From Hyphomonadaceae bacterium (GTDB taxonomy: Bacteria; Pseudomonadota; Alphaproteobacteria; Caulobacterales; Aquidulcibacteraceae), in assembly GCA_033764725.1 (NCBI GenBank), contig JANRIR010000073.1, positions 9,972 through 73,971 on the forward strand: a stretch of 64,000 bases of DNA. Direction: 5' to 3'. The notes beneath the pieces are model-generated. The model was given only the letters and a program-made list of their open reading frames with translations, had not been told where the DNA came from and ran no database searches. Made by a program: the position numbers and the translations under genes. Below, piece after piece: positions 21,492-52,171 of this stretch; positions within the stretch are counted from its first letter, which is position 1, and each line of letters begins with the position of its first letter.

Positions 21492-22984
21492 GGCGCAGCG
21501 CTCCGGGCGGCTGCAAGCGCCTCGACGATCGTCTGCGCCGAGACGCGCGTGAAATCCAGCGCAAGGCTCGGCGCGAGGCCCAGGATCAGCGCAGCGGCGA
21601 CCAGCGGCGCGAACGTGATCCATTCGCGCGCATCGAGATCGGCGATGGCGGCGAGTTTGGGATTGTCGAGCGTGCCGAAGGCGACCTTGCGATAGAGCGT
21701 CAACGCATAGACAGCCGACAGGATGACCCCCACGCACGCGCCCGCCGCGACCCACGGATTGACCTGGAACGCCCCCGTCATGGTCAGGATTTCACCGGGG
21801 AAGCCGCTCAAACCCGGCAGGCCGACATTGCCCATGGTGAACAGCATGAACACCGCGGCATACACCGGCATGCGGTGCACGAGCCCGCCATAGAAGGCGA
21901 TCTCGCGGGTGTGCATGCGGTCATAGACGACGCCGACGCACAGGAACAACGCGCCCGAAATCACGCCGTGCGACAGCATCTGGAAGATGGCGCCCTGCAC
22001 GCCCTGCTCGTTGCCGGCGAAGATGCCCATCGTCACGAAGCCCATATGGGCGACGGACGAATAGGCGATCAGCTTCTTGATGTCGGTCTGCCGGAAGGCG
22101 ACCAGCGAGGCGTAGACGATCGCGATCACGCTCAGGGCGAACACCAGCGGCGCAAACAGCGCCGAGGCATCGGGGAACATCGGCAGCGAAAAGCGCAGGA
22201 AGCCGTAGCCGCCCATTTTCAACAGAATCGCGGCGAGCACGACGGATGCGGCCGTCGGCGCCTCGACGTGCGCGTCGGGCAGCCAGGTGTGCACCGGCCA
22301 CATCGGCATCTTCACCGCGAAGGAGGCGAAGAACGCGAGCCACAGCCAGGTCTGCAGCGCGGGATCGAAGCCGTGCGCGGTGAGCTCCGGAATGCTCGTC
22401 GTGCCGGCCTCTAGCGCCATCACCACGATCGCCACGAGCATCAGGATCGAGCCCAACAGCGTGTAGAGAAAGAACTTGAACGCCGCATAGATGCGCCGCG
22501 CGCCGCCCCAAACCCCGATGAGAATGAACATCGGAATGAGGCCGGCCTCAAAGAAGACGTAGAACACCACGATGTCGAGCGCGGCGAACACGCCGATCAT
22601 CAGGGTTTCCAAAATCAGGAACAGCGTCATGTAGGACGCGACCTGCTTGTCAATCGACCAGCTCGCCAGGATGCACAGCGGCATGAGCGCCGTGGTCAGC
22701 ACGATCAGCGCCAGCGCCAGCCCGTCGACGCCCATATGGTACGACACGCCAAACGCCCATGGCGTGCGCTCGACGAATTGATAGCCGGGCGCTGCAGGAT
22801 CGAAGCCGGCCAGGATGATCATGCTGACGATGAACGCAGCGATCGTGACGATCAGCGCCATCAGCTTCACGCCGCGATCGAGCCCGGGATTGTCGCCCGA
22901 CGCGCTCCAGCGCGCGGCCATGATCAACAGCGCGCCCGCCGCCGGCAGGAACGTCATGATCGACAGAAGCGGCAGGCCGTTCAT
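21488..22984 (-). CDS. nuoM: NADH-quinone oxidoreductase subunit M
   Basis: [21 protein letters not shown].. is an antiporter-like subunit. It makes an ATGA overlap with the nuoL stop. Confidence 0.93.
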
Positions 22985-25038
22985 GGCGCCGCTCCCGCGC
23001 CGCCGGCCCAAATCGCGTAGGCGCCGAAGCCCACCGCCGCCGCCAGCATCAGGAAGCCGTAATGATAGACGTATCCGGTCTGCGCGCGGCGCATCTGGCG
23101 CGCAGCCAGTCGCGCCGTCGAGGCCACGCCGTCAGGGCCGAGCCCGTCGATGAGCCGCTGATCGCCGCCCTTCCAGAGGAGATCGCCGAGCGCGCGCGCG
23201 CCCTTCACGAAGATGAAGTCGTAGATCTCGTCGAAAAACCATTTGCGGTAGAGGAAGGCATGCAACGGCCCGCCCGCCGCGGCGATGCGCGCACCGAGAC
23301 CCTGGTTCAACAGGTAGAAGAACACCGCGAACAGAAAGCCCACGGCCGTGACCGCCAGCGGCGCCCAGATCACCCAGGCCGGGGGATGGTGGTGCTCGCC
23401 ATGCGCGAGATGCAGCGCATCGCGCCAGAACGGGCCCGACAATTCGCCGACGAAATATGGCTTGAACGCAAAGCCCGCAAATACCGCGCCGGCCGCGAGC
23501 ACGAACAGCGGCACGAGCATCACCCAAGGCGATTCATGCGCCGGCGCCGCGCCGTCGTCGCGGCCGCCGTGCTGCGCGGGCGCATGCGCGTCGGCGGCGT
23601 GGGCGCCATGATCGTCATGCGCATCATGGCCGTCATGGGCATGCGCATCGTGGGCGGCGCCCCGATAGCGTCCCTCGAACGTCATGAAGATCAGGCGCCA
23701 GGAATAGAAGCTCGTCAGCAGCGCTGCGCCGAGCCCCGCCCAGAACGCCAGTTCGCCGCCGATGCGCCCGGCATGTCCCGCCGCATAGGCCGCCTCGATG
23801 GCGGCGTCCTTGGAATAGAAGCCCGCAAAGCCGAACACGCCGGGAATGCCGAAGCCGATCAGGGCGAGCGTGCCGATCACCATCATCGCGTACGTGGTGG
23901 GCATGGGTTTGCGCACGCCGCCCATGTTGCGCATGTCCTGCTCGTGATGCAGGCCATGGATCACCGAGCCCGAGCCCAGGAACAAAAGCGCCTTGAAGAA
24001 GGCGTGCGTGAACAGATGGAACATCGCCACGCCATAGGCGCCGACGCCGGCGGCGAAGAACATGTAGCCGAGCTGCGAACACGTCGAATACGCCACGACG
24101 CGCTTGATGTCGTTCTGCGCCAGACCCACGGTGGCCGCGAAAAACGCCGTGATCGCGCCGATGATGGTGACGAAGCCGGCCGCGTTCGGCGCGAGTTCGA
24201 ACAGGTCCGAGCAGCGGCACACCATGAACACGCCCGCCGTCACCATGGTGGCGGCGTGGATCAGCGCCGACACGGGCGTTGGGCCCTCCATCGCGTCGGG
24301 CAGCCACACATGCAGGAAGAATTGCGCGCTCTTGCCCATCGCGCCGATGAACAGGAGCACCGCGATCGTCTCGACCGCCGGAACCTGCAGTGCGCCCACC
24401 ACGAGCATCAGATCAGGCCGGGCCTCCGCGGCGGCGAACACCTCGTCGAAGCGGATTGAGCCATAGCAGAAGAACGCCGCCATGATGCCGAGCGCGAAGC
24501 CGAAATCGCCTACGCGATTGACCACGAACGCCTTGATCGCGGCGTCATTGGCGGAGCGCTTGTCGAACCAGAAGCCGATCAGCAGATAGGACGCGACGCC
24601 CACGCCCTCCCAGCCGAAGAACATCTGCAGGAAGTCGTTCGCAGTCACCAGCGCGAGCATCGCGAACGTGACGAAGGACAGATACGAAAAGAAGCGCGCC
24701 TTGTGCGGATCCTCGGCCATGTAGCCGATGGAATAGACATGCACGAGGAACGACACGCTCGTGACGACGACGAGCATCACGGCCGAGAGCGCGTCGATGC
24801 GCACCGACCACGTGGAGCTGAAGCCGCCGACATCGATGAAGCGGAACAGCTCGATGACGCGCGCGTCGCCCCCGAACCAGGTGAAGTCGGCGAAAATGTA
24901 CAGCGACAGCGCCAGCGCCACGCCGACCGACGCCGTCGTCACCGCCATCGCCAGGCGATCGCCCAGATAGCGCTGGAACAGGCCCGCGATGAGCGCGCCG
25001 AGCAGCGGCGACAAGACGACGATGGGCTCGAACGGCAT
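22981..25038 (-). CDS. nuoL: NADH-quinone oxidoreductase subunit L
   Basis: 685 aa, with an antiporter-like core plus a His/Asp-rich insertion and a C-terminal lateral-helix region. Position fits operon order. Confidence 0.93.
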
Positions 25039-25041
25039 CCG

Positions 25042-25350
25042 TCAGCCCTTCATCAAATTGATGTCTTCGACGGCGATGCCGCCGCGATTGCGGAAATAGG
25101 TGACCAGGATGGCGAGGCCGACGGCGGCCTCTGCGGCCGCGACCGTCAACACCATCATGGCGAAGATCTGCCCCTCCAGATTGTTCAGGAAGGCGGAGAA
25201 GGCGACGAGGTTGATGTTCACCGAGAGCAGCACAAGCTCGATCGACATCAGGATGACGATGACGTTCTTGCGATTCACGAAAATGCCGAACACGCCGATC
25301 GTGAACAGCGCGGCGGCGACGAACAGATAATGCTCCAGCCCGATCTGCAT
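25042..25350 (-). CDS. nuoK: NADH-quinone oxidoreductase subunit K
   Basis: 102 aa with three TM helices. [31 protein letters not shown].. is canonical. Confidence 0.95.
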
Positions 25351-25354
25351 CGCC

Positions 25355-25975
25355 TCAGCCCTCTGCGCCCAGGCCCTGGCCGGGCTTGACGTCCTTCAGC
25401 TCCACGCCCTGTGCGCGCCGGCGTCCGACCTGGGCGGCGACGTCCTGACGGCGCACGCCGGGGCGCTCGCGCAAGGTCAGCACGATGGCGCCGACCATCG
25501 CCACGAACAGCACCATGCCGGCGAGCTGAAACACGACGATATAATCCGTGTAGAGCACGCGCCCGATGGCTTCGGCGTTGGTGACGCCGCTCTCGGCCGC
25601 AAGCGGCGTGGCGGGACGGCCTTGCGCGGCCTGCATGGCGGCGTTCGAGATGAGGCCAAGCTCGGCGAACATGGCGAGCGCCACCAGCGCGCCCAGGGGC
25701 AGATAATTCAGAAAACCCGATTTCAGTTCGGCGAAATCGACGTCGAGCATCATGACGACGAACAGAAACAACACCGCCACCGCGCCGACATAGACGACCA
25801 CCAGCAGCATCGCGAGAAATTCCGCGCCCATGAGCACGAACAGACCTGCGGCGGTGAAGAAGGTGAGGATGAGGAACAGCACCGAATGCACCGGGTTGCG
25901 CGCGGAGATCACCCCGAACGCAGAGACCACCGCGGTCGCCGCCAGCGCATAGAAGGCGAAAGCCGAAGCGATCAT
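25355..25975 (-). CDS. nuoJ: NADH-quinone oxidoreductase subunit J
   Basis: 206-aa membrane subunit. Position and sequence are typical of NuoJ. Confidence 0.92.
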
Positions 25976-26460
25976 CGGTAGGGCGCGTCCAGCTCGAGGT
26001 TGCGGGCGATTTCACGCTCCCAGCGGTCGCCGTTCGCGAGCAGGCGCTCCTTGTCGTAGAACAATTCCTCGCGCGTCTCGACGGCGAACTCGAAATTCGG
26101 CCCCTCCACGATCGCATCGACGGGGCACGCCTCCTGGCAGAAGCCGCAATAGATGCACTTCGTCATGTCGATATCGTAGCGCGTGGTGCGGCGGGAGCCA
26201 TCCTCGCGCGGCTCGGCCTCGATGACGATGGCCTGGGCGGGGCAGATCGCCTCGCACAGCTTGCACGCGATGCAGCGCTCCTCGCCGTTGGGATAGCGGC
26301 GCAACGCGTGTTCGCCGCGGAAACGCGGGCTCAAGGGGTTTTTCTCGAACGGGTAGTTCACGGTCGCCTTGCGGCGGAACATGTATTTGATCCCCAAAGC
26401 GAAGCCGCCCAGGAAATCCAGCATCAAGGCGCCGCGCGCCGCTTGGAGAAGCCTGTCCAT
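25972..26460 (-). CDS. nuoI: NADH-quinone oxidoreductase subunit I
   Basis: Two CxxCxxCxxxCP ferredoxin motifs ([24 protein letters not shown]). The start is at [16 protein letters not shown] (residue 24 of the ORF). Confidence 0.94.
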
Positions 26461-42190: not shown

Positions 42191-42225
42191 CGCCCGCCCG
42201 GCCTCGCGCCGGGCGGGTTTTTTTT
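42191..42225 (+). terminator. rho-independent terminator of katG
   Basis: 10-bp GC stem CCCGCCCGGC (42193-42202) / GCCGGGCGGG (42208-42217), a 5-nt loop, then a run of 8 T (42218-42225), about 27 nt after the katG stop. Confidence 0.85.
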
Positions 42226-42231
42226 GGGCGC

Positions 42232-43203
42232 TTACGGCGCGCGCGACGCCGGCGGCGCCGCATGCGTGCGCGCCAAAGCGTACAGCACCGCAGACGGCCG
42301 GCTTGTCGGCGGCAACCGCGCATCCTGTTGGAAACGACCAAGCGCCAGCCGGCTCTGCGCATCCCAGCGCCCGCTCGGCGGCGCTTCCGACAGGTAACCC
42401 AGGCGGGTCAATTCTTCCTGCATCAGCCGATGGCGCTCCGCTGGCGCGGCGCGCTCATAAGCGCCGATCGCTGCAGAAAACGCCTCGGGCGACGCCGTCG
42501 CCGCATCCAGGCACGGGCGATAATCGATGCCGAAGAAATCCGCGAGATGGACGAGCGCGACGGCTTCCAAGACGCGCCGCTGCGCCATCTGCGCGCCCTG
42601 GACGCGGCGGCGATCCATACCGATTTCGGCCCCGTCGGCGCCGTCGTCGATCACCAGGAACGCTTCCTCGCCGCGACGCGGCAACGCCACGCCGACCGCC
42701 GTGGACAGACGAACGCGTCCATTCACCGAAGACGCGAAATCGCCGGCGATGAAATCATAGCTCGTGCGCCGCCCGAGCCCCGCGCGCACGTTTGCGCCCG
42801 CAACCCGCACGCCCATGCCGCGCTCGCCGGTGAACAGATCGTCCTGCGTCCACGCGCCCGACAGCGTCAATCGCCGCGCGCCCGCGCGCTGTTCGTCCAT
42901 GACGATCTGCACTTTCGACGTCTCGAGCCGCGACAGCGCGGTATGCAGCACGAACGATCCGCCCAAACTCAGCCGCCGCTCTTCATTCAAGAGCGGCACC
43001 GTCGCATCTTCGATGTCCCGCACCACCACGCTGACCGGCGCAGCCGGGCTCTGCTCGATGAGGCCGCCAAGGCACCGCAATCCCGCGCTGTGCTCGGTCA
43101 TGACCGGCGACACCGCGGGCGCATCACGCAACAACGCCGCCTGGGGCTCCACGCTGGCGCATGCCGAAGCGCCTAGCGCCATCGCCAATCCGAGATGCTT
43201 CAT
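42232..43203 (-). CDS. outer-membrane lipoprotein, CsgG/HfaB-like N-terminal region plus C-terminal peptidoglycan-binding-like repeat
   Basis: Has a signal peptide with a lipobox (MKHLGLAMALGASAC). ..PVSVVVRDIEDAT..., ..FVLHTALSRLE..VQIVMDEQ and later blocks follow the CsgG pattern from memory. The C-terminus LTRLGYL....GRWDAQSRLALGRFQ resembles PG_binding_1. The family call needs HMM confirmation. Confidence 0.5.
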   Translation of the reverse strand: MKHLGLAMALGASACASVEPQAALLRDAPAVSPVMTEHSAGLRCLGGLIEQSPAAPVSVVVRDIEDATVPLLNEERRLSLGGSFVLHTALSRLETSKVQIVMDEQRAGARRLTLSGAWTQDDLFTGERGMGVRVAGANVRAGLGRRTSYDFIAGDFASSVNGRVRLSTAVGVALPRRGEEAFLVIDDGADGAEIGMDRRRVQGAQMAQRRVLEAVALVHLADFFGIDYRPCLDAATASPEAFSAAIGAYERAAPAERHRLMQEELTRLGYLSEAPPSGRWDAQSRLALGRFQQDARLPPTSRPSAVLYALARTHAAPPASRAP

Positions 43204-43232
43204 CGCGCCGTCTCCCTGTCATTCGGATCAAG

Positions 43233-43257
43233 AACGACGCCTGCGGCGATCTATTCC
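43233..43257 (-). promoter_or_regulatory. ECF-type promoter P1 (GGAATAG-N14-CGTTCT) for the lipoprotein gene
   Basis: The minus strand reads TTTGGAATAGATCGCCGCAGGCGTCGTTCTTGATCC. The spacer between GGAAT and CGTT is exactly 16 nt, and the -10 element ends 29 nt before the ATG at 43203. Verified against the translation of ORF 43161..44033. Confidence 0.6.
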
Positions 43258-43269
43258 AAAGCCGGGAAA

Positions 43270-43294
43270 GGAATAAGCGACGGCGGTCTTCGTT
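43270..43294 (+). promoter_or_regulatory. ECF-type promoter P2 (GGAATAA-N14-CGTTCT) for the 234-aa protein gene
   Basis: The plus strand reads GGAATAAGCGACGGCGGTCTTCGTTCTGGG, with the ATG at 43329 34 nt downstream. It is divergent from P1. Verified against a supplied translation. Confidence 0.6.
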
Positions 43295-43328
43295 CTGGGT
43301 GCGACCGCAACACAACCAAGCGAGACCC

Positions 43329-44033
43329 ATGTTCGCCTTCGCCGCGCCCAAGCCCCGGATCAGCTTCACCTGCAGGCCCGAGGACAAAGGCGTCATCGCC
43401 GAGCCGATCCCGGCCAAGGGCGCCATGCCCGATTGGTTCAAGCGCATCCCGCCGGTCGATGTCGGCGTGCAGAGCCCGAGCAATAACGGGCTGACCATCA
43501 AGCGTTGCCTGCCGTTTCTCGACGCCATGACGCACGGCTGGATCATTCCGCTTGCGGCGTCCGTCCGGCTGGAGGTGTCCAAGGACGGCGCAGAGGTGAA
43601 CGCCGGCTGGGATTTCGACCGGGAGATGGTCAGCTTCCATCCGGACTTTCAGGTGTCGGGCCACCCTTTCGGCCCAGGTCCTGCATGCAAGTTTCACAAT
43701 TTCTGGACGATCCAGACGCCGCCGGGCTGGAGCGTGCTGATCACGCCGCCGCTCAATCGCCCGCATCCGACCTTTGAAATTCTCAGCGGAATCGTCGACA
43801 CCGACACGTACCGCTCGCCGATCCATTTTCCATTCTTCCTCAATGTCGGCGACGGCCTGCACGAGATCGAGAAAGGCGCGCCCATCGCGCAAATCATCCC
43901 GTTCCGCCGCACGCAGATCGCCGCCGACATTCGCGCCGAGACGCCGGAAGAAGCGGCCGAACGCGTGCGCATCCTGCGCAACACGCGCGCCGGCGGCGCC
44001 TGGTACCGCCAGCAGGCGCGGGCGCCGCGCTGA
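43329..44033 (+). CDS. conserved-looking hypothetical protein, no signal peptide
   Basis: 234 aa starting at MFAFAAPKPRISFTCRPEDKG (residue 57 of ORF 43161..44033). Composition is ordinary and rich in His/Trp/Phe (..FHNFWTIQTPPGWSVLITPPLNRP.., ..IVDTDTYRSPIHFPFF..). I could not confidently name a family. Confidence 0.6.
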   Translation: MFAFAAPKPRISFTCRPEDKGVIAEPIPAKGAMPDWFKRIPPVDVGVQSPSNNGLTIKRCLPFLDAMTHGWIIPLAASVRLEVSKDGAEVNAGWDFDREMVSFHPDFQVSGHPFGPGPACKFHNFWTIQTPPGWSVLITPPLNRPHPTFEILSGIVDTDTYRSPIHFPFFLNVGDGLHEIEKGAPIAQIIPFRRTQIAADIRAETPEEAAERVRILRNTRAGGAWYRQQARAPR

Positions 44034-44045
44034 AGCGAACCTCAC

Positions 44046-44079
44046 AAAAAAATCCGGAGCGGCGAGGAGGCCGCTCCGG
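44046..44079 (-). terminator. rho-independent terminator of the (SNSS)18 gene
   Basis: 10-bp perfect stem CCGGAGCGGC (44054-44063) / GCCGCTCCGG (44070-44079) with a 6-nt loop. On the minus strand it is followed by A-TTTTTTT (plus-strand A-run 44046-52). It lies about 25 nt after the stop at 44103. Confidence 0.8.
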
Positions 44080-44102
44080 TGAGAGGACCAAGCCGGCTTC
44101 GC

Positions 44103-44522
44103 TCAGGTCGAGCTGTTCGAAGAAGAATTCGAAGAGCTGTTCGACGAACTGTTCGATGAACTGTTCGAGCTCGAATTCGACGACGAGTTGGAGCTCGAGT
44201 TCGACGAGGAATTCGAGGACGAATTGGAGCTGGAGTTCGAGGAAGAATTCGAGCTCGAGTTCGACGAGGAATTCGACGAGGAATTCGAGGACGAGTTCGA
44301 CGAGGAATTGGAGCTGGAATTCGAGATTCCACGTCCGCCGCGGCGGCGCTCGCGCACCTCTTCGACGACCGCACCCTGTTCGGCGCGCGCGTCGGCCGCG
44401 CGTTCGATCTGCGCCGTCCGCGTCACGGAGGCGACGCCGTCATGGGTGGCGGCCTGCGCCCCCATGGCGGACACGCCCAGCGCCGCAGCGGACGCCGTTG
44501 CGATCCAGGTGAACTTTTTCAT
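44103..44522 (-). CDS. secreted protein with C-terminal (Ser-Asn-Ser-Ser)x18 repeat
   Basis: The start MKKFTWIATASAAALGVSAMGAQA-AT is a Sec signal with an AxA site, preceded by GGAAAGG 7-8 nt upstream. A charged linker of about 57 aa follows, then a 73-residue tail that is a perfect SNSS repeat plus a final T. The track ORF is 44103..44567. Confidence 0.7.
   Translation of the reverse strand: MKKFTWIATASAAALGVSAMGAQAATHDGVASVTRTAQIERAADARAEQGAVVEEVRERRRGGRGISNSSSNSSSNSSSNSSSNSSSNSSSNSSSNSSSNSSSNSSSNSSSNSSSNSSSNSSSNSSSNSSSNSSSNSST
44106..44324 (-). repeat. 12-nt-period coding tandem repeat encoding (SNSS)18
   Basis: The period is imperfect at the DNA level: all six Ser codons and both Asn codons are used. 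The peptide repeat is perfect. The tract contains several GAATTC, GAGCTC and CTCGAG sites. Confidence 0.85.
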
Positions 44523-44573
44523 ATCGAGCCTTTCCCTTTTCCACGCCCGATCGCAAACGTCGGGCATGAGGCA

Positions 44574-44598
44574 AACGCCGCCGCCGAAGTCCTATTCC
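44574..44598 (-). promoter_or_regulatory. ECF-type promoter P3 (GGAATAG-N14-CGTTTG) for the (SNSS)18 gene
   Basis: The minus strand reads GTGGAATAGGACTTCGGCGGCGGCGTTTGCC, with a 16-nt spacer. The ATG at 44522 is 51 nt downstream. Verified against the translation of ORF 44442..44771. Confidence 0.55.
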
Positions 44599-44664
44599 AC
44601 AGCATCAGCCTTAAAGCCCGGCAATGCGCTCTTCGGGCCGGGTCATTTAATTCGCCCACGAACC

Positions 44665-44689
44665 GGAATAAGAAGCGGGCTGCGGCGTT
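44665..44689 (+). promoter_or_regulatory. ECF-type promoter P4 (GGAATAA-N14-CGTTCT) for the porin gene
   Basis: The plus strand reads CCGGAATAAGAAGCGGGCTGCGGCGTTCTGGGG, with the ATG at 44720 30 nt downstream. Verified against the translation of ORF 44442..44771. Confidence 0.6.
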
Positions 44690-44719
44690 CTGGGGATCAA
44701 ACGCCAAGAGGGGATTTGC

Positions 44720-45763
44720 ATGCGTGGGTTGTTTGGGAGCGTGGCGCTCGCCGCGGTGTGGGCGGCGATGACGGGCGACGCGTCGGCCCAAGAGCTTCGC
44801 GCCAACGTCAACGGGGTCGAACTCACCGCCAACGGCGCGATCTCGCTGCAAGCCGGGGCCTATGAGGACCCTGAAACCGGGCGCTCCGACGAAGCCTCCG
44901 AATGGGACGCTTCGTTGATTGTCAATGCGGAATACGTCGCCCAATCGGGTCTCGTTTATGGTTTCCGTGCGGAGGTCGATACGGGCGACCGCGAGGCCGA
45001 GGATCTGCAGCGTGACGAAATTTATGTGTATCTCGCCGGCGGCTTCGGCCGCGTCGAATTGGGCGAGCAGGACGGCCCCGCCGACACCATCTCTCTGCAC
45101 GCGCCGCTTGTAGGCCTCGGCCAGATCCGCGGCGATTTCGTGCGCTATGCCGGAACCGCCGCGCTGATCAGCCCCTTCGACACCCGCGATGCGTTGAAGA
45201 TCCTCTATCTCTCCGCGCCCGTGCGCGGCTTCCGGTTCGGCGTCTCCTATGCGCCGGAACTGGAATCCAACAGCGACGATCCCAATCCGCGCCGGCGCAC
45301 GCGCCAAGAGAATGCGATCGAAACCGCCCTCGCCTACCAGACGACGCTCGGCGATTGGGTCGGCGGCGTGAGCGCGGCCTATGTGCATGGCGAAGCCGAT
45401 CCCGTCACGGAGCGGCAGGATCTTGAATCCTGGAGCATCGGCTCGGAATTCCGCCGCGGCCCCCTCGCCATCGGCGCCGCCTTCGTCAGCCGCGGCGACA
45501 GCAACAGCCTCACGCCCGGCCTCGACGAAGAAGAAATCAACGCCGGGATCGCCTGGCGCGCCGAGCGCTGGGGCGTCGCCCTCTCCGCCTCGGAGACGGA
45601 CTCCACGAACTTCACCAACCGGCTGATCGGCGTGGGCGGCTATTACGAACTGAGCGAGCATTGGGTGCTGCGCGCCGATTTCGTCAGCATCGAAGAGGAG
45701 CCCGTGGGCGCGCCGTCTGCGTCGGGTTCCGTGGCGATCGCTGAAATTTCTTTCAGATTCTGA
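44720..45763 (+). CDS. outer-membrane porin (beta-barrel)
   Basis: Has a signal peptide (..AAMTGDASA-QE), alternating amphipathic strands, acidic loops and a C-terminal aromatic signature (..IAEISFRF). 347 aa. Confidence 0.75.
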   Translation: MRGLFGSVALAAVWAAMTGDASAQELRANVNGVELTANGAISLQAGAYEDPETGRSDEASEWDASLIVNAEYVAQSGLVYGFRAEVDTGDREAEDLQRDEIYVYLAGGFGRVELGEQDGPADTISLHAPLVGLGQIRGDFVRYAGTAALISPFDTRDALKILYLSAPVRGFRFGVSYAPELESNSDDPNPRRRTRQENAIETALAYQTTLGDWVGGVSAAYVHGEADPVTERQDLESWSIGSEFRRGPLAIGAAFVSRGDSNSLTPGLDEEEINAGIAWRAERWGVALSASETDSTNFTNRLIGVGGYYELSEHWVLRADFVSIEEEPVGAPSASGSVAIAEISFRF

Positions 45764-45770
45764 AACGAAG

Positions 45771-45795
45771 GGAATAGGCGCTCTGCAGCGCCGTT
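45771..45795 (+). promoter_or_regulatory. ECF-type promoter P5 (GGAATAG-N14-CGTTCT) for the P-loop/ABC-like pair
   Basis: The plus strand reads GGGAATAGGCGCTCTGCAGCGCCGTTCTCCC, starting 8 nt after the porin stop. The ATG at 45847 is 51 nt downstream. Verified against the translation of ORF 45753..45935. Confidence 0.6.
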
Positions 45796-45846
45796 CTCCC
45801 TTGCATCCGCATCAGGAAAAAGCGGATCGACAAGGGGAAACATCGC

Positions 45847-46902
45847 ATGCGCCTCACGCTTCCGCCGGAACGGCTCGCCCGCGCAAAGCGCGCTTTCAGC
45901 ACACGGACGGCGCCCGATCGGGCGCTGCACGCCATCGAGACCGCCGACGTTTCGCCCCGCGCCGGCGATCTGGTTTTGGCGCGCGTGCTCGAGGTCGGCG
46001 CCCATCAGAGGCTCGAACTGACCACCAGCCGCAAGGCGCTGTTGTTTGAAGGCGATGAAATCATTCTCGCCTACGGCAACCGCTACGCGCCGGACCAGTT
46101 CGAAGCCGTGGCGCCGGATGATCTCGGCCCCTGCGATCTTGCCGCCGCCGGCGGCATCGCCGCGCGCGTCATCGCCAAGAACGAGCGCATGGAGGAGCCG
46201 ACGCGCATCCAGCCGATCGGGCTGTTCGTCGATGACGCGGGCAAGGCGCTCAATCTGCGCGGCTTCGCCCTCGCCGCTCCCGAAGCCGCCGCGGCGCCGG
46301 CGATGTTCACCGTCGTCGGCGGCTCGATGAACGCCGGCAAGACCACCACCGCCGCCTCGATCATCAAGGGCCTCACGCGCGCCGGATTGAAGGTCGGCGC
46401 AGCGAAGCTGACCGGCACCGGCGCAGGCAACGATTTCTGGCACATGCGCGACGCCGGCGCTTTCCGTGTTCTCGATTTCACCGATGTCGGCATGGCCACG
46501 ACCTATCGCGCCGATCGCGGCGAGCTGGCGCATGGCGTGCGCACGCTGATCGGCGCGCTGGCGCAGGACGGCGCCGACGCGCTGGTGCTCGAGGTCGCCG
46601 ACGGGCTCTTCCAGGACGAGACCGCGTGGCTCATCGCCTCCGGCCTGTTGAAGCAGCCGCGCAGCGGCTACCTCTATGCCGGCGAAAGCGCCGCCTCGTG
46701 CGCGATGGGCGTGCATTGGCTGCGCCAACACGGCCGCGTGCTGGGACTGAGCGGCCTGGTGTCGCAATCCCCGCTCGCGTGCCGCGAGGCCACGCAAGCC
46801 ACCGGCATGCGCTGCTACACGCGCGAGGCGCTGGCCTCGATGGAGGTCGCAGCAGCGCTCTACGACGCGCTCATGGAGCCCTGCGCGCAAGCGGCGGCAT
46901 GA
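45847..46902 (+). CDS. P-loop NTPase of uncertain family (possibly DUF1611-like)
   Basis: 351 aa. Walker A is VVGGSMNAGKTTTAASIIKGL, followed by KLTGTGAGND, with a Walker-B-like ALVLEVADG. The N-terminal domain of about 150 aa is unassigned. The stop makes an ATGA overlap with the next gene. Confidence 0.6.
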   Translation: MRLTLPPERLARAKRAFSTRTAPDRALHAIETADVSPRAGDLVLARVLEVGAHQRLELTTSRKALLFEGDEIILAYGNRYAPDQFEAVAPDDLGPCDLAAAGGIAARVIAKNERMEEPTRIQPIGLFVDDAGKALNLRGFALAAPEAAAAPAMFTVVGGSMNAGKTTTAASIIKGLTRAGLKVGAAKLTGTGAGNDFWHMRDAGAFRVLDFTDVGMATTYRADRGELAHGVRTLIGALAQDGADALVLEVADGLFQDETAWLIASGLLKQPRSGYLYAGESAASCAMGVHWLRQHGRVLGLSGLVSQSPLACREATQATGMRCYTREALASMEVAAALYDALMEPCAQAAA

Positions 46903-48410
46903 GACCGCGGCTGCTTGCGCCAGGGCGCGGCTGGCCGCTGGCGCGCCTTGGGGTGTTGACGCTTGCCGAAGCGGGGGCGCTGGCGGGCGGCGTCGTTGCG
47001 CTCAAGAGGTTTCTCGACGCCGCCGGCGCCGGCGCAGATCTGCGCGGCCCGAGCCTTATGCTGCTCGCCGTCTCCACCGCCTCCGCTGTCATTACCTGGG
47101 CGCGGGCGGTGACGGCCGAAGACGTCAGCATGGATTACGCCAACGATTTGCGCCGCTTTCTGGCGCGCCACGCTGTAGCGGCGAGCGAAGGCGCACGGCG
47201 ACTTGGCGCTTTGACCGCGCGCATGACGGGCGACGTCAATCCGATGCGCGAATGGGCCTCGATCGGGCTCGGCGAATCCGGCGCAGCGCTCGCCGCCGGC
47301 GTCGGCGCGCTTGCGGCGCTTGGGATGGCGGCAGGCGCAGGCGGGCTCGCCGCAGGCGTGGGACTGCTCGCTGCGTGTGGACTGGTCTGGATAGGACTTG
47401 GGCGCGCGCATCGCCGCGCCCTGCAGCGCTTACGCCAGGCCCGCGGCCGCGTGGCCGCCGTCGCCGGCGACATCGTTCTGGGCGCACGCACCTTGGCGCT
47501 GTTCCACGCGGCGCATCGCGAGCGGACGAGGCTCGATGCGCGCGCTGATGATGTGCGCGCCGCCGCCGTCCGGCGCACAGCGATCGCGAGCCTGGTCGAG
47601 GCGCCTGCGGCCTACGCCGTCGTCGCGACGTTTCTGGCCATGCTGTCGCTGGCGATGCACGCGGATCGCGCGATCGACTGGGCGATGGCGGCGTTCGCGG
47701 GCGGCTTTCTAGGCGCGGCGCTGCGCTCTGGCGCGCGTGCGCGCGATAGTTTCCTTGCAGCGCAACTTGGCGCCGCGCGGTTCGACCGTCTTGCCGCTGA
47801 AGCCGCGCGGGTTCGAACGGATCCGGCGCGTGCGCCGGCGCCGTCGGACGGCGCCATCGCGCTGCGTCTCGGGGGCGGCGATGATGTCGTTCTGCAGCGC
47901 GGCGAGGTCGCTTTCGTCAGCGGCGAGCTTCCGCGCGGCGCGCTTGCGTCTCTGGAATCGCTTGCACGCACGCCAGGCGCGGTGCGATTCGCGGGCGCAC
48001 AGGATGACGAGCGCGGCCTGCGCCGCCGCATCATGCTGGCGGCCCCCAGCGCGCCGCTGCTGCGCGGCTCGTTGCGCCGCAATCTATCGATCGGCCAGCG
48101 CGGACTATCGGACGATGTAATGGCGCAGGCGCTCGCCCTGGTCGGCCTTGCGGACATGGCCGCAGCGCTCGAGCGCCGCATCGATCCGGACGCGCCCAGC
48201 CTCGACGGCTGGACGCAAGCGCGGCTGCGCCTGGCGCGCGCCATCGCGCATGGGCCGTCACTGCTGATCGTCGCGGAGCCGGCGCTGTATTTCGATCCCG
48301 AATTGCCGGCGCTGTTGCGGGCTGCGGCGCAGGCGTCCGAGTGCGGCGTGATCGCCGCCGGCCCAGGCGCCAACGACAGCCGGGATCGGCGCTACACGAT
48401 CGCACTTTAG
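46899..48410 (+). CDS. ABC-exporter-like membrane protein with a degenerate (non-catalytic) nucleotide-binding domain
   Basis: 503 aa starting at MRPRLLAPG (residue 92 of ORF 46626..48410). The N-terminal region of about 300 aa is hydrophobic. In the C-terminal ABC-fold region, Walker A is replaced (GEVAFVSGELPRGALAS), the signature LSGGQ is replaced (LDGWTQARLRLARAI), and the Walker B Asp is replaced (LLIVAEP). Confidence 0.6.
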   Translation: MRPRLLAPGRGWPLARLGVLTLAEAGALAGGVVALKRFLDAAGAGADLRGPSLMLLAVSTASAVITWARAVTAEDVSMDYANDLRRFLARHAVAASEGARRLGALTARMTGDVNPMREWASIGLGESGAALAAGVGALAALGMAAGAGGLAAGVGLLAACGLVWIGLGRAHRRALQRLRQARGRVAAVAGDIVLGARTLALFHAAHRERTRLDARADDVRAAAVRRTAIASLVEAPAAYAVVATFLAMLSLAMHADRAIDWAMAAFAGGFLGAALRSGARARDSFLAAQLGAARFDRLAAEAARVRTDPARAPAPSDGAIALRLGGGDDVVLQRGEVAFVSGELPRGALASLESLARTPGAVRFAGAQDDERGLRRRIMLAAPSAPLLRGSLRRNLSIGQRGLSDDVMAQALALVGLADMAAALERRIDPDAPSLDGWTQARLRLARAIAHGPSLLIVAEPALYFDPELPALLRAAAQASECGVIAAGPGANDSRDRRYTIAL

Positions 48411-48455
48411 GCCTCACCCGAGCGCATGGATCTCCCGCAGCGCAGCGGCTTTGCG

Positions 48456-49181
48456 TCACCGCCAATCGCCGGCGATCAGCGCCGCTTCCGCTTCGGCGTC
48501 GAGCGGCGCCTGCGCATCGAGCCGCGACAAGGCGGCGTCGAGCACGCTTGCGGCGTCGTCGCCCACGGTTTCGTATCCGCCCGCAGTCGCCGGCGCAGCC
48601 GCGGTCAACACTTCGAAGCGCCAACGATCGTCCTGCCGGCACGCGACGCCTGCCGACGCCGACGCGCCGATCTGAACCTCCACCTCGCGGCAATACCGCC
48701 CATCGCCGATGCGGAAGGAGGACGACGCGCGAAACACGCCTGCCCCGTCAAGCGCGCGTTCAGCGCCGCTCGGCGCCTGCTCCAACATGGCGTGCAACGC
48801 GCCGCCGGCCGGCACGGCGGCGGGATCGAGCGCGCCGCCGCGCGGCGCAGCGATCATTCCGCCTGCCGCGCCGACGACGAGCGCTATGCCCGCGGCGATG
48901 GGAACACGCCAGCGGTCGGCGATGCGTTGGGCTGCAAACAGCCGGTCTTGCGGCGCGATCGCCGCATCGCGCACGAGCGCTGCAAGGCGCGGCGCAGGCG
49001 TGTCGAGGTCGGGCGCGGCATAGGCGGCGCGCACGGCTTCGTCCGCCTGACGCAAGGCCTGCAGGCGCGCACGCGCCGCAGCGTCGGTCTCAAGCGCGCG
49101 CTCGAGCGCGGCGCGCTGGTGCGGCGGCAGCGCGCCGTCGAGATAGGCGCTCAATTGCTCGTCGGAAATCTCGTCACTCAT
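48456..49181 (-). CDS. membrane-spanning anti-sigma factor
   Basis: N-terminal anti-sigma domain pattern (EQLSAYLDGALPPHQRAALERAL..D), a single TM helix (VPIAAGIALVVGAAGGMIAA) and a periplasmic domain of about 130 aa. The start overlaps the sigma gene stop by 8 nt. Confidence 0.8.
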   Translation of the reverse strand: MSDEISDEQLSAYLDGALPPHQRAALERALETDAAARARLQALRQADEAVRAAYAAPDLDTPAPRLAALVRDAAIAPQDRLFAAQRIADRWRVPIAAGIALVVGAAGGMIAAPRGGALDPAAVPAGGALHAMLEQAPSGAERALDGAGVFRASSSFRIGDGRYCREVEVQIGASASAGVACRQDDRWRFEVLTAAAPATAGGYETVGDDAASVLDAALSRLDAQAPLDAEAEAALIAGDWR

Positions 49182-49701
49182 GCACCGCGCTCCCCGCCGG
49201 CTGAAGTCTTTGCGCCACCGCCTTGCGCGCGCGCGACAGGCGGCTCATGACGGTGCCGATCGGTATTTTCAAAACCTCAGAAACTTCCTGGTAGCTCATG
49301 CCTTCGATCGCCACGAGCGTGAGGATCACGCGGTGATCGTCGGGCAGCGCATCCATCGCCGCGCGCGTGCGCTTGAGGTCGATTGCGGATTCGACCACGT
49401 CGCGGCCGTCGACGAGCGAGAGATCATACATGTCGTCGATGGCGACGACTTTGCCGCGTCGGCTGCGCGCGCGCACCTCGTCGATCCAGGCGTTGTAGGC
49501 GATGCGCAGCACCCAAGGCTCCATCCTGGAGCCTGGCGTCCAGCGATGCAGATTGCCGATCGCGCGCTCAAGCGCGATCTGCGCCAAATCCTCGCCGTCT
49601 TCGCGTGAACCGGTCATGGCGTAGCAAAACCGCTGCAGGCGAGGGATCGCCTGGAGAAGCAACGCCTTTGGGGAATCCGGTTCATCGCGGCTTTGCCTCA
49701 T
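49174..49701 (-). CDS. ECF-family RNA polymerase sigma factor
   Basis: Has sigma-70 region 2 (..EDGEDLAQIALERAIGNLHRW......PWVLRIAYNAWIDEVR) and region 4 (..LVAIEGMSYQEVSEVLKIPIGTVMSRLSRARK). The track ORF starts at ATG 49716. I prefer ATG 49701 (MRQSRDE, with GGGGAG 7 nt upstream) because the -10 of promoter P6 abuts 49716. Confidence 0.88.
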   Translation of the reverse strand: MRQSRDEPDSPKALLLQAIPRLQRFCYAMTGSREDGEDLAQIALERAIGNLHRWTPGSRMEPWVLRIAYNAWIDEVRARSRRGKVVAIDDMYDLSLVDGRDVVESAIDLKRTRAAMDALPDDHRVILTLVAIEGMSYQEVSEVLKIPIGTVMSRLSRARKAVAQRLQPAGSAVHE

Positions 49702-49716
49702 AAGATCGCTCCCCAT

Positions 49717-49741
49717 AACGCCGCGATGACGGTTTTATTCC
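49717..49741 (-). promoter_or_regulatory. ECF-type promoter P6 (GGAATAA-N14-CGTTAT), putative autoregulatory promoter of the sigma/anti-sigma operon
   Basis: The minus strand reads TCCGGAATAAAACCGTCATCGCGGCGTTATGGGGAGC, with a 16-nt spacer. This stretch is not covered by any supplied translation, so it rests on my reading of the raw sequence lines. Confidence 0.5.
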
Positions 49742-49769
49742 GGACGGTCGCCGTTCAGTGTGCGCCCAT

Positions 49770-49794
49770 GGAATAGGACGATTGCTTCAACGTT
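49770..49794 (+). promoter_or_regulatory. ECF-type promoter P7 (GGAATAG-N14-CGTTCT) for the S8 protease operon
   Basis: The plus strand reads ATGGAATAGGACGATTGCTTCAACGTTCTCTAACC, with the ATG at 49833 38 nt downstream. It is divergent from P6, with 28 nt between the two -35 elements. Verified against the translation of ORF 49760..49975. Confidence 0.6.
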
Positions 49795-49832
49795 CTCTAA
49801 CCATGTAGCTCCAGCCAGCGACAAGGACGCCC

Positions 49833-51506
49833 ATGCGACGCGCCTCGACCAGCACCCTCCTTGCGGCCACCGCCGGCTTCGCCCTGCTTTGGGGCGGATA
49901 TGCGCCCGGCGTCGGCCAAGAGCCCTCCGGCGCTGCGTTCGCGCAGGAGGCGCCGGACGACGACCCCGACGATGACGCCGATGACGACGATGACCTCGGC
50001 AGCGACGGCGCAGGCGAAGACGATCCCGGCAATGACGGCATCGACGACGCTGGGGGCGACGAGGCTGGGGGCGACGACGTTGGCGGCGATGACGCGGGCG
50101 GCGACGACGCGGGCGGCGATGACGCCGGCGCTGACGATGCGGGCGACGACGGCGCCGGCGGCGATGACGACGGACCCGGCGGAGACGATGGCCCAGGCGG
50201 CGATGATGATGGGCCCGGCGGGGACGATGACGGCTCCGGCGGCGCGCCTGGCAGCGATGACGACGATGGGCCGGGCGGCGATGACGACGACGCGCCCGGA
50301 TCGGGCGGCGGTCGCGACGATGACGACGACGACCCGCCTGGCGGCTCGGGCGTACGCGGCGTCGACGCCGACGGCGGCCAGCGCATTCGCGACGGCGACC
50401 GCGACGTCGCCGGACCGAGCGCGTTGCCTGACGGCGTCGAGGTCGATTTCGAAGGCTATTGGGTGAAGGCCGGCGAAGTGCTGGCGCTGGAGGCCGATCC
50501 CACCTCGCTCGAGTTCGCGCGTGCGCTGGGCTTCGAGGTGATCGAACGCCACCGCTTGACGACGCTCGGCCTGTCGATCGTGGAGCTGCGCGTGCCGCGG
50601 GGACAGCAGACGCGCGCCGCGCTCGAAACGCTGCAAAACGGCGACCCGGACACCGCCTACGATTTTAACCACATCTACACCGCAACCCAGAGCGGGCGCC
50701 CCGCTCCGGGCGGCGCGCGCCGACCTGCCGCGTCCGCAACGACGCCGCCGGCGGTGCGCGCCGGCGCCGTCGGCATTGTCGACACGCGCATTGACGCCGC
50801 GCATCCGAGTTTGCGCCAGGCGCGCATCGTGCAGTCCGACTTCGTCAACCGCACCGTTGCGCCGAACGATCACGGCACTGCGGTCGCGTCGGTGATCGTC
50901 GGCGAAGCGGCGTCGCGATCGACGGCGCTGTCGGTGTACGCCGCGGCCGTGGTCGATCGCTCCGGCGTGCGCGGGGCGGAACTCGCCTCCGCCGACCGTC
51001 TCGTGCGCGCGCTTGATTGGATCGCGCAGAACAATGTCGCGGTGGCCAATGTCAGCCTCGCGGGTCCGCCGAACCGTTTGGTGGAGGACGCCGTGCGGCG
51101 TGCGCAGGCGCGCGGCATGCTGATTGTCGCCGCCGTCGGCAATGACGGGCCGGCCGCGCCGCCGCTCTATCCCGCCGCCTATGACGGCGTCGTCGGCGTG
51201 ACGGCGGTGGACGACAACGGCGTCGTCTATCGGCGTGCAGGGCGCGGCGAGCATGTCGATTTCGCCGCCCGAGGCGTCGGCGTGCAGGTGGCGGCACCGG
51301 CGGGGCAGAGCATGGAGGTCAGCGGCACGTCCTACGCGGCGCCTTCGGTTGCGGCGGCGCTGGCGGAACTGCACACGCGGATGGACGCCGCCTCCGCCGC
51401 GGCGGCGGTGGCGGCGCTGCAGCAGCGCGCGCGCGACGCCGGCGACCGCGGACGCGATCCGGTCTATGGCGACGGCGTGGTGCCGACGGGTCGGGCGACG
51501 CCATGA
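49833..51506 (+). CDS. secreted S8 (subtilisin-like) serine peptidase with a poly-Asp/Gly N-terminal tract of about 150 residues
   Basis: Has a signal peptide (..AAFA-QE). The catalytic triad contexts are GIVDTRID (Asp), NDHGTAVASV (His) and SGTSYAAPSVAA (Ser), with the oxyanion Asn in AAVGNDG. 557 aa. Confidence 0.85.
   Translation: MRRASTSTLLAATAGFALLWGGYAPGVGQEPSGAAFAQEAPDDDPDDDADDDDDLGSDGAGEDDPGNDGIDDAGGDEAGGDDVGGDDAGGDDAGGDDAGADDAGDDGAGGDDDGPGGDDGPGGDDDGPGGDDDGSGGAPGSDDDDGPGGDDDDAPGSGGGRDDDDDDPPGGSGVRGVDADGGQRIRDGDRDVAGPSALPDGVEVDFEGYWVKAGEVLALEADPTSLEFARALGFEVIERHRLTTLGLSIVELRVPRGQQTRAALETLQNGDPDTAYDFNHIYTATQSGRPAPGGARRPAASATTPPAVRAGAVGIVDTRIDAAHPSLRQARIVQSDFVNRTVAPNDHGTAVASVIVGEAASRSTALSVYAAAVVDRSGVRGAELASADRLVRALDWIAQNNVAVANVSLAGPPNRLVEDAVRRAQARGMLIVAAVGNDGPAAPPLYPAAYDGVVGVTAVDDNGVVYRRAGRGEHVDFAARGVGVQVAAPAGQSMEVSGTSYAAPSVAAALAELHTRMDAASAAAAVAALQQRARDAGDRGRDPVYGDGVVPTGRATP
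49953..50402 (+). repeat. imperfect GGCGGCGAYGAC-type coding repeat encoding the acidic (GGDD/GPGGDDD)n tract
   Basis: Residues about 41-190 read PDDDPDDDADDDDD..GGDDAGGDDAGGDDAGADDAGDDGAGGDDDGPGGDDGPGGDDDGPGG..RDDDDDDPPGG. The antisense frames give poly-Ser/Pro shadow ORFs. Confidence 0.8.
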
Positions 51507-52171
51507 TGCGCCGCGCCTTTCTCGCTTTCGCGCTCGCGTGCGGTCTCGTTGGCGCCGCGGACGCCGCGCCGCTGCCGCGCTACGCCGCCGGCCAGGCCTT
51601 CATCTTCGACAACGGCCGCGTCGAACTGGTTCGCGAGGTCAGAAACGATCGCGTCGTCTGGTCGGCGCGCAGCGGTCGGCCGTACGTACGCAGCGCCAAT
51701 CCGGTCGTGCCCATTCTGGAATGGTCGTTTCGCGGCCAGACGGGACGGCGCACGGTGCTCGGCGATCCCGATCGCCTCTGGCCGCTGCGCGCCGGGCGAC
51801 GCGTCGAGTTTCGCACGTTGAACGTCGCCACCGATGCCGACGAGCGCGCGCGACGCAGCATCCATTTGTGGAGCTGCGCTGCGCGCACGCCGGTGACGCT
51901 CGATGTCCCGGCCGGACGATTCACCGCCATCCCGGTCGTGTGTGATCGCTTCAGCCACAATTCGATGCGCGTGCTGGAACGGCTGACATGGCACTATTCT
52001 GAAGAAGTCGGGCACTATATCCGGCGCGAGGCGCGCGACATGAGCGACGGCAGCGTCGAAACCTACGCGCTGTTCGCCACGCTGCCGCCGCACGCCGCCA
52101 ACGACGTCCGCATCGAAACGCTGGCGCGGCAGGCGCGCGCGGCCTCCGCCGGCTCGCGGCCTCAGCGCTGA
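51503..52171 (+). CDS. secreted hypothetical protein co-transcribed with the S8 peptidase
   Basis: 222 aa with a signal peptide (MMRRAFLAFALACGLVGAADA-AP). Its ATG makes an ATGA overlap with the protease stop. I recognise no family. Confidence 0.6.
   Translation: MMRRAFLAFALACGLVGAADAAPLPRYAAGQAFIFDNGRVELVREVRNDRVVWSARSGRPYVRSANPVVPILEWSFRGQTGRRTVLGDPDRLWPLRAGRRVEFRTLNVATDADERARRSIHLWSCAARTPVTLDVPAGRFTAIPVVCDRFSHNSMRVLERLTWHYSEEVGHYIRREARDMSDGSVETYALFATLPPHAANDVRIETLARQARAASAGSRPQR

Follow-up and report, generated by a model that had tools for sequence, protein, structure and literature searches.

Which regulator reads a promoter-like motif that is repeated in nearly every intergenic gap of a 10-kb gene island, and what do the genes behind it do together? 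The question is raised by a stretch of 64,000 nucleotides from contig JANRIR010000073.1 of a Hyphomonadaceae bacterium (assembly GCA_033764725.1), referred to below as the window. Between 42.2 and 52.2 kb, the window holds ten genes (g1 to g10, Table 1), including those of an extracytoplasmic function (ECF) sigma factor, g8, and its anti-sigma factor, g7, and seven copies of the motif GGAATAR-N14-CGTT. Here, we have compared the motif and the genes with published promoter maps and with related loci. We conclude that the 10-kb stretch is very likely the local regulon of an RpoE6-type ECF sigma factor of group ECF26. The type of regulon, the RpoE6 branch of ECF26, is already known, and the island is not an undescribed regulon. 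What is added here, as read from the compared loci, is a conserved cassette of a porin, a SIMIBI-class nucleoside triphosphatase (NTPase), a protein resembling ATP-binding cassette (ABC) exporters, the sigma/anti-sigma pair, an S8 protease and a YmcC-like protein.

Seven copies of one motif lie in the gaps of the island

The pattern GGAAT-N16-CGTT has exactly seven matches in the window, and all of them are within the intergenic gaps of 42.2-52.2 kb. In dinucleotide-preserving shuffles (n=100), 0.39 matches were expected and the maximum was 3, so that 0 of 100 shuffles reached seven. GGAATA(A/G) is found in 7 of 7 sites and CGTTCT in 5 of 7, and the orientation of the sites, read from the four intergenic regions, makes the adjacent gene the target of every one of them. 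CGTT and the start codon are separated by 29 (g1), 34 (g2), 51 (g3), 30 (g4), 51 (g5) and 38 nt (g9), and by 0 nt in the case of ATG 49716 of the open reading frame (ORF) of the sigma factor. Three pairs of sites are back to back and divergent. The motif is bipartite, directional and non-palindromic, with a fixed 16-nt gap and an unconserved spacer, and comparison of the sites showed no repeat that extends past the two boxes.

With a position weight matrix (PWM) derived from the seven sites, these score 31-39 bits and the next-best position in the 64 kb scores 13 bits. Such a scan is circular for its input sites and is informative on an eighth copy only; none was found in the 64 kb by the PWM or by relaxed patterns (GGAAY, N15-17, CGTY). 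The additional matches to the relaxed patterns are only within coding sequence and lack the extended motif, as do two matches to GGAAC-N-CGTY elsewhere in the window. No sigma-70-like promoter was detected in the island, where the chance expectation is just 0.8.

These results agree with an initial annotation made from the letters of the window, which had listed the seven copies with their positions and strands, the constant gap, GGAATA(A/G) in all and CGTTCT in five, a -10 element 29-51 nt before six start codons and the three divergent pairs. Its estimate of less than one chance occurrence holds in the shuffles. Its impression by eye that other intergenic regions have no further copy is borne out by the PWM scan of the window, which it had proposed as a check.

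The motif and four transcription units match the RpoE6 regulon of Sinorhizobium meliloti

The initial annotation knew of no described ECF regulon that the island would match, and in this it was mistaken. Promoters of S. meliloti RpoE6 were mapped by 5'-rapid amplification of cDNA ends (5'-RACE) (Lang et al. 2018, PMC6180224). They read GGAATAA-N14-CGTTCT for ecfR6, GGAATAG-N14-CGTTCT for the serine protease gene SMa0142 (induced 4.7 log2 by RpoE6) and GGAATAG-N14-CGTTAC for SMa0148 (induced 6.5 log2), and the mapped starts are ~9 nt after CGTT (PMC6180224). We located these promoters on pSymA of strain 1021. That of SMa0142 is upstream of a homologue of g9 (38% identity), that of SMa0148 is upstream of a DUF6065 protein 59-60% identical to g2, and that of ecfR6 is inside the sigma gene. 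pSymA has another exact copy of the motif, before an ORF whose product is a secreted (SNSS)n protein resembling g3; this ORF is probably the RpoE6 target SMa0146. Four transcription units are thus common to the island and the experimentally defined regulon, namely those of the sigma/anti-sigma pair, of the S8 protease, of the DUF6065 protein and of the (SNSS)n protein.

RpoE6 belongs to group ECF26, for which a cross-species consensus of -35 GGAATA and -10 GT has been given and in which the divergent arrangement of rpoE6 and a serine protease gene is a conserved context (PMC6180224). RpoE6 remains in group 26 in the newer classification, and strongly activates a heterologous ECF26 promoter (PMC10880074). 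The window shares these group features: its seven sites carry -35 GGAATA and -10 (C)GT(C/T), its sigma factor consists of sigma-2 and sigma-4 domains only and, at 175-180 aa, is within the usual ~170-190 aa, and a serine protease gene is divergent from it. The same layout is found on pSymA of S. medicae, where the exact motif again precedes an (SNSS)n ORF, and on an Aminobacter plasmid, minus the DUF6065 and SNSS genes. The window sigma factor is 40-46% identical to the products of the S8-adjacent sigma genes of Aminobacter and Sinorhizobium pSymA. Among 72,556 plasmids, all of the best sigma matches inspected adjoin an S8 peptidase gene, including the top match, from Tritonibacter. The S8 protease gene divergent from the sigma gene is also seen in L003, L004, L092, L093, L094, L005, L015 and L017 (L numbers denote the collected loci).

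The island thus resembles the S. meliloti RpoE6-EcfR6 system (SMa0143/SMa0144; targets SMa0142, SMa0146 and SMa0148) in its promoter, GGAATAR-N14-CGTT(C/A)(T/C), in the sigma/anti-sigma operon divergent from an S8 protease with a poly-Asp tract after the signal peptide, and in the DUF6065 protein (60% identical) and the secreted (SNSS)n protein behind the motif. In comparison with S. meliloti, the window adds the porin, the SIMIBI NTPase/ABC-like pair, the YmcC-like g10 and the peptidoglycan-binding lipoprotein g1, homologues of which were not found within 9 kb around rpoE6 on pSymA.

Other members of ECF26 are less close. S. meliloti RpoE1 and RpoE4 and Starkeya novella SigE (PMC3511301, PMC6527743) also have -35 GGAAT(A) and -10 CGTC/CGTT elements and a membrane anti-sigma factor co-transcribed with the sigma factor. 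Unlike the island, these sulfite-response systems target sulfite-oxidising enzymes, and the window has no such genes; rpoE6 was itself reported to be unresponsive to sulfite-generating compounds (PMC3511301, PMC6527743). The Caulobacter SigV/CaBP circuit (PMC13171946) was considered as a relative and dropped, as its boxes, GGAAA-N13-CGTTCA and GGAAGCTTCG-N16-GCTTCA, differ from those of the window.

The motif is kept before orthologous units in distant relatives

Neither the sigma factor of the window, with either start codon, nor g5 had an identical entry in the protein collection. A contig search with g5 gave two metagenome-assembled genomes (MAGs) of Caulobacteraceae, L001 and L002, as the nearest relatives. 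In L001, the proteins are 93-98% identical, and g1-g6 are in the same order with five sites, including that of g1. In L002 (35-74% identical), the porin, NTPase, ABC-like, anti-sigma/sigma, S8 and g10 genes follow the order of the window. Its motif copies stand before the porin, NTPase, sigma and S8 genes and before an extra gene for an RTX calcium-binding-repeat protein, and show no spacer similarity to the copies of the window. In L005, which has the same genes, the sigma operon is inverted and the motif is before the sigma, porin and NTPase genes. The motif precedes orthologous units with differing spacers in L002, L005, L012, L014, L015, L017, L047, L061, L076 and L080, and it precedes the porin homologue in L001, L002, L005, L012, L014, L015 and L017. 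The initial annotation had suggested a check of related genomes, and we found that orthologous units keep the motif and do not keep its spacer. This conservation, in relatives of 35-75% protein identity, supports its central proposal that the genes at 42.2-52.2 kb are joined by an ECF-type promoter in a single candidate regulon under the local sigma factor.

Nineteen other loci, of which 18 are distinct, also have the motif in front of their g5 homologue, a gammaproteobacterial MAG of 50% G+C among them. When metagenomes were scanned with an alignment of g5 homologues, 80 loci were obtained, 77 of them having upstream sequence, and 15 of these 77 have GGAATA(A/G)-N14/15-CGTT at 44-131 nt upstream of the g5 homologue. 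Motif-like sites without the A number ~8 in 678 kb of the same metagenomic loci, and we estimate from this that far fewer than one would be expected in 77 short upstream stretches. The 956 kb of collected sequence holds 59 N16 sites against ~4.7 expected from base composition; 56 of the 59 continue as GGAATA, with an A that was not in the search pattern, and none reads GGAAC. The consensus derived from the collected sites is GGAATAR-N14-CGTTnT.

The whole cassette, in window order and with the motif before each unit, is present in several contigs of 48-51% G+C (L012, L015 and L017 among them). The cassette recurs in the same order, with the same predicted promoter before each unit, across lineages that are distant from each other and range from 48 to 67% G+C. 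The g5/g6 pair stands behind the motif, with no sigma gene in the stretch examined, in L009 and in L011 (a MAG labelled Gammaproteobacteria). A plasmid of Paracoccus liaowanqingii carries an S8 protease gene and, divergently, sigma, anti-sigma, alpha/beta hydrolase, NTPase and ABC-like genes, with -10 elements that read CGTC or CGTA, and Tritonibacter mobilis p2 also carries the cassette. L095 has a distant g1 homologue in an operon behind GGAATAA-N14-CGTC. An adjoining operon of L095 encodes an Asp/Asn hydroxylase, an alpha/beta hydrolase, the ABC protein and the NTPase behind GGAATAA-N15-CGTC, and an S8 gene is nearby.

Outside the proteobacteria, the Chlorogloeopsis chromosome (cyanobacterium; L007 5539-15599) has the NTPase/ABC pair downstream of a histidine kinase and a response regulator. 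After the pair come a small ORF and genes for a CapA-like (PGA_cap) protein, an OprB porin and an M36-like peptidase. The partnership of the pair with a porin and a secreted peptidase therefore recurs under another regulator.

Further genes are led by the motif in individual relatives. They include the RTX calcium-binding-repeat protein of L002 (16251-17265) and an Asp/Asn beta-hydroxylase of L061 (8194-8219). L080 (7083-8864), L003 (7071-7095) and L095 (9302-9327) jointly contribute an OprO/P phosphate porin with a 330-aa protein, a DUF4956/VTC-like polyphosphate/phytase-like operon and a DUF5666 protein. Calcium or phosphate may be what these accessory genes have in common.

The sigma gene probably starts at the second ATG

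That the -10 element of the sigma-gene copy abuts ATG 49716, as first described, is right as a distance. This start codon is, however, an artefact of taking the longest ORF: an ATG that abuts the -10 element cannot lie on a transcript started from that promoter. Sigma homologues align from the second ATG, at 49701, and in seven lineages (the window, L002, L005, L015, L017, L047 and L061) the first plausible sigma ATG is 6-15 nt after CGTT. The sigma gene therefore probably starts at ATG 49701. As the homologues align from this codon and the S. meliloti transcripts start ~9 nt after CGTT, the sigma mRNA is predicted to have a leader of ~7 nt and to be nearly leaderless. The operon's own motif copy, from which autoregulation had been proposed, is kept before the sigma gene in six further loci.

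Which sigma factor reads the promoters

The motif has been likened to the promoter of the alphaproteobacterial general-stress sigma factor EcfG/SigT (ECF15). If the boxes were EcfG promoters, the island would belong to the general stress response and not to a regulon of the local sigma factor, which we consider very unlikely. The resemblance to the EcfG box, noted in the initial annotation and remarked on in PMC6180224, is real for the core, GGAAC-N16/17-CGTT. It goes no deeper: in 7 of 7 sites of the window, the fifth base is T where the EcfG box has C, and A-R comes next, and GGAAC is likewise never found at the sites of relatives. The two regulons do overlap in S. meliloti, where 27 of 40 RpoE6-induced genes (67%) are in the regulon of the EcfG-type RpoE2 (PMC6180224), and some cross-recognition is possible. 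Against an EcfG reading, SMa0142 and SMa0148 have table values for RpoE6, and 0.7 for RpoE4, and none for RpoE2 (PMC6180224), and the motif travels with the local sigma/anti-sigma pair, including in lineages of 48-51% G+C. L011, which has the gene pair and promoter only, is named as a member of a class outside the one having EcfG. The regulon seen in the window is small and local, not global. A tblastn search of the 64 kb with the sigma factor detected no second sigma-like ORF, and there is no PhyR nearby, though a very diverged PhyR could escape this search. As the initial annotation held, g7 is a 241-aa transmembrane protein and not a NepR; this is supported by a zf-HC2 match and one hydrophobic segment.

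It is less improbable, yet still rather unlikely, that both sigma factors read the promoters, with the local ECF26 factor as the main driver and EcfG as an additional input; this possibility overlaps with our preferred explanation. Within the -35 core, essentially a single position separates the two motifs, and limited cross-talk between RpoE6 and RpoE2 is known in S. meliloti (PMC6180224). The cross-talk reported there is, however, that of RpoE6 onto GGAAC promoters, and no RpoE2 value is given for GGAATA promoters (PMC6180224). Finally, as the window sites are known from sequence alone, one could imagine that the box is not a promoter at all, and that it is instead bound by a transcription factor or is a dispersed repeat that was copied with the genes. 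This can hardly be correct, given the two boxes with their constant gap, variable spacer, single direction and lack of a palindrome or of any repeat beyond them, the placement at promoter distance, and the identical elements found at promoter distance upstream of the 5'-RACE starts of S. meliloti (PMC6180224).

We return to the regulon of a local RpoE6-type sigma factor as the best explanation, against which several points weigh in addition to the overlap with RpoE2. The window sigma factor is only about 40% identical to RpoE6. Autoregulation would be wired differently: the window has its ECF promoter upstream of the sigma gene, with the short leader, whereas S. meliloti has an RpoD-like promoter for rpoE6 and carries the ECF motif within rpoE6, ahead of ecfR6. 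The source organism is uncultured and the nearest loci are MAGs. Moreover, our motif scan covered the 64-kb window, and the regulon may extend beyond the island. What the products do together can only be guessed.

A model for the island

We argue that the membrane anti-sigma factor g7 would keep g8 inactive until an envelope signal frees it, which by analogy with other single-pass anti-sigma factors would be through proteolysis. Free sigma factor would then take RNA polymerase to the seven promoters, all of which we infer to be recognised by g8, and by analogy with S. meliloti transcription would start ~9 nt after CGTT, near 43224(-), 43303(+), 44565(-), 44698(+), 45804(+), 49708(-) and 49803(+). 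The promoter of its own operon, with a nearly leaderless mRNA, could provide positive feedback that is reset by newly made anti-sigma factor. The other six promoters would drive the S8 protease and its YmcC-like partner, the porin, the SIMIBI NTPase/ABC-like pair, the DUF6065 protein, the (SNSS)18 protein and the peptidoglycan-binding lipoprotein, and almost all of these products are predicted to be exported or membrane-bound. The regulatory part of this model is well supported. As a hypothesis, the products may work together at or within the envelope, and an export and processing module is the most plausible form of this.

A more specific and tentative idea, which we regard as possible and somewhat doubtful, concerns the core cassette (porin, SIMIBI NTPase with a novel N-terminal domain, ABC-like protein, poly-Asp S8 protease and YmcC-like barrel). 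It could be an undescribed envelope export or processing system that was repeatedly recruited under RpoE6-type ECF control and, in cyanobacteria, under a two-component system. The NTPase might replace or regulate the dead ABC ATPase. The S8 protease might mature a secreted client, for example the (SNSS)n protein, or cleave the anti-sigma factor and so close a positive loop; either cleavage is a hypothesis.

The island reveals no new regulatory principle. ECF26 is a large group of sigma factors, and the promoters of its RpoE6 branch have been mapped, but its signal and function are not known (PMC6180224). The window gives an unusually clean view of this branch, with seven promoters and ten genes, and the comparison shows that distant proteobacteria have a recurring gene set in this branch, in which the NTPase/ABC-like pair is a predicted target even where the stretch examined has no sigma gene. 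A concrete pan-regulon is hereby defined for the RpoE6 branch, and Sinorhizobium meliloti, Tritonibacter mobilis and Paracoccus liaowanqingii are cultured hosts in which its signal and function can be tested.

Genes of the island

Table 1. Predicted features of the 10-kb island, in window coordinates
Feature	Position	Strand	Basis or type
Probable lipoprotein g1, C-terminal PG_binding_1 domain	42232..43203	-	Pfam PF01471, E 9e-8
Putative promoter GGAATAG-N14-CGTTCT for g1	43233..43257	-	ECF26/RpoE6-type
Putative promoter GGAATAA-N14-CGTTCT for g2 (DUF6065)	43270..43294	+	
DUF6065 protein g2, 234 aa	43329..44033	+	Pfam PF19541
Putative terminator between convergent g2 and g3, strong G+C-rich hairpin and T-run	44054..44079	.	
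Small secreted protein g3, signal peptide and (SNSS)18	44103..44522	-	Translation
Putative promoter GGAATAG-N14-CGTTTG for g3, (SNSS)18 gene	44574..44598	-	
Putative promoter GGAATAA-N14-CGTTCT for porin gene g4	44665..44689	+	
Outer-membrane porin g4 (Porin_4)	44720..45763	+	Pfam PF13609, E 9.5e-29
Putative promoter GGAATAG-N14-CGTTCT for g5-g6 operon	45771..45795	+	
SIMIBI-class P-loop NTPase g5	45847..46902	+	Weak MobB match, AlphaFold model, Foldseek
ABC-exporter-like membrane protein g6, degenerate nucleotide-binding domain	46899..48410	+	ABC_membrane, CydD/CydC-like C-terminus
Anti-sigma factor g7, 241 aa, one transmembrane segment	48456..49181	-	zf-HC2, NF052375
ECF sigma factor g8, RpoE6-like	49174..49701 (longest ORF from 49716)	-	Pfam Sigma70_r2, Sigma70_r4_2
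Putative autoregulatory promoter GGAATAA-N14-CGTTAT of sigma/anti-sigma operon	49717..49741	-	
Putative promoter GGAATAG-N14-CGTTCT for S8 protease-g10 operon	49770..49794	+	
Exported S8 serine protease g9	49833..51506	+	Peptidase_S8, E 1.5e-27
Exported beta-barrel protein g10, YmcC/GfcB (DUF3108-like) fold	51503..52171	+	Model, Foldseek

Stop and start codons overlap in g5/g6, g8/g7 and g9/g10, which are evidently operons. In the sigma operon, g7 overlaps the stop codon of g8. The sigma factor is 175-180 aa long and its domains are Sigma70_r2 (residues 24-87) and Sigma70_r4_2 (117-166). The zf-HC2 domain of the anti-sigma factor covers residues 8-32 (E 1e-4), and the hydrophobic stretch VPIAAGIALVVGAAGGMIAAP, near residues 93-113, was read from its translation. 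The starts of the sigma gene and of the S8 protease gene g9, which is on the opposite strand, are 131 bp apart, and the g9 product has an Asp/Gly-rich low-complexity N-terminal tract. An Asp-rich tract of variable length (poly-D, DG or DS repeats) directly follows the signal peptide in the window (49833-50350) and in L092, L003, L005, L017 and L094, and such a tract is present in every sigma-linked S8 protease of this kind that was examined.

The model of g5 has a predicted local distance difference test (pLDDT) score of 94.7. Foldseek matched its C-terminal domain only, over ~230 residues, to SRP54/FtsY, dethiobiotin synthetase and HypB (E 1e-7 to 1e-5), and gave no match for the beta-rich N-terminal domain. 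The Walker A residues G164, K165 and T166 are invariant across 43 homologues. On the basis of the model, g5 is a SIMIBI-class NTPase with an intact Walker A motif, and NTPase activity is predicted. The start of g6 overlaps the stop of g5, and the pair is widespread, with >3000 matches. The nucleotide-binding domain of g6 departs from that of an ABC exporter (Walker A GxxGxGK[ST], LSGGQ, Walker B hhhhDE): the equivalents in the window read SGELPRGALAS, LDGWTQ and LLIVAEP, and the Walker A motif, the signature and the Walker B aspartate are gone in the window and in its alphaproteobacterial relatives. Homologues in gamma-like contigs retain Walker A, have DD in Walker B and lack the signature, and the cyanobacterial homologue is canonical. 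A stepwise decay of this domain can be followed across L002, L005, L009, L014, L015, L017, L011, L013 and L007.

For g10, the model (pLDDT 94.3) matches YmcC (2in5) in Foldseek with E 1e-5 and a template modelling (TM) score of 0.49-0.56. The protein itself has no Pfam match, some members of its family (63 proteins) match PF21347. The YmcC-like barrel, a modest fold match at a TM score of ~0.5, recalls the Gfc/Ymc and Yjb envelope operons of E. coli. Among the other products of these operons are a secreted protein that is small and hydroxyl-rich and a barrel of the outer membrane, which recall g3 and g4 and may serve as a lead only; no homologues of GfcC/GfcD or YjbG/YjbH were seen.

The N-terminal domain of g1 is of no recognised kind, and its family is small (30 proteins). 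When the family profile was compared with solved structures in the PDB, only the peptidoglycan-binding part was matched. A CsgG-like secretion lipoprotein was considered for g1 and dropped, as Pfam at E <= 5 and the PDB profile match only the C-terminal peptidoglycan-binding domain. No signal peptide is evident in g2, whose DUF6065 family has 2114 cluster representatives. Its profile has no solved relative in the PDB, where it gave only insignificant dUTPase matches (E >= 0.33). That g2 is a diverged Asp/Asn beta-hydroxylase, like the product of the motif-bearing gene of L061, was rejected at an hhalign probability of 0.1.

The 12-nt DNA units of the g3 repeat are merely 69-82% alike, so that the repeat is maintained at the protein level and is not a product of recent slippage. 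The (SNSS)n ORFs of S. medicae pSymA (L004 10363-10803) and S. meliloti 1021 pSymA (L092 5313-5773) are on the plus strand, with the motif pointing into them. The S. medicae record annotates a 'hypothetical protein' on the opposite strand over the same repeat (L004 10386-10739), probably a strand mis-call.

The neighbours of the island are katG and a major facilitator superfamily (MFS) transporter gene, both without the motif. With these neighbours, and with no tRNA or integrase gene at the borders, there is no sign of a mobile element. No known RNAs were found in 41.5-52.8 kb with Rfam. At the left border, between katG and the end of g1, 42192-42218 forms a very strong G+C-rich hairpin (11 pairs) followed by a T-run. 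Outside the island, the AT skew at 20001-26000 is unusually high, at +0.25 to +0.29, and elsewhere in the window it is about 0 to 0.1.

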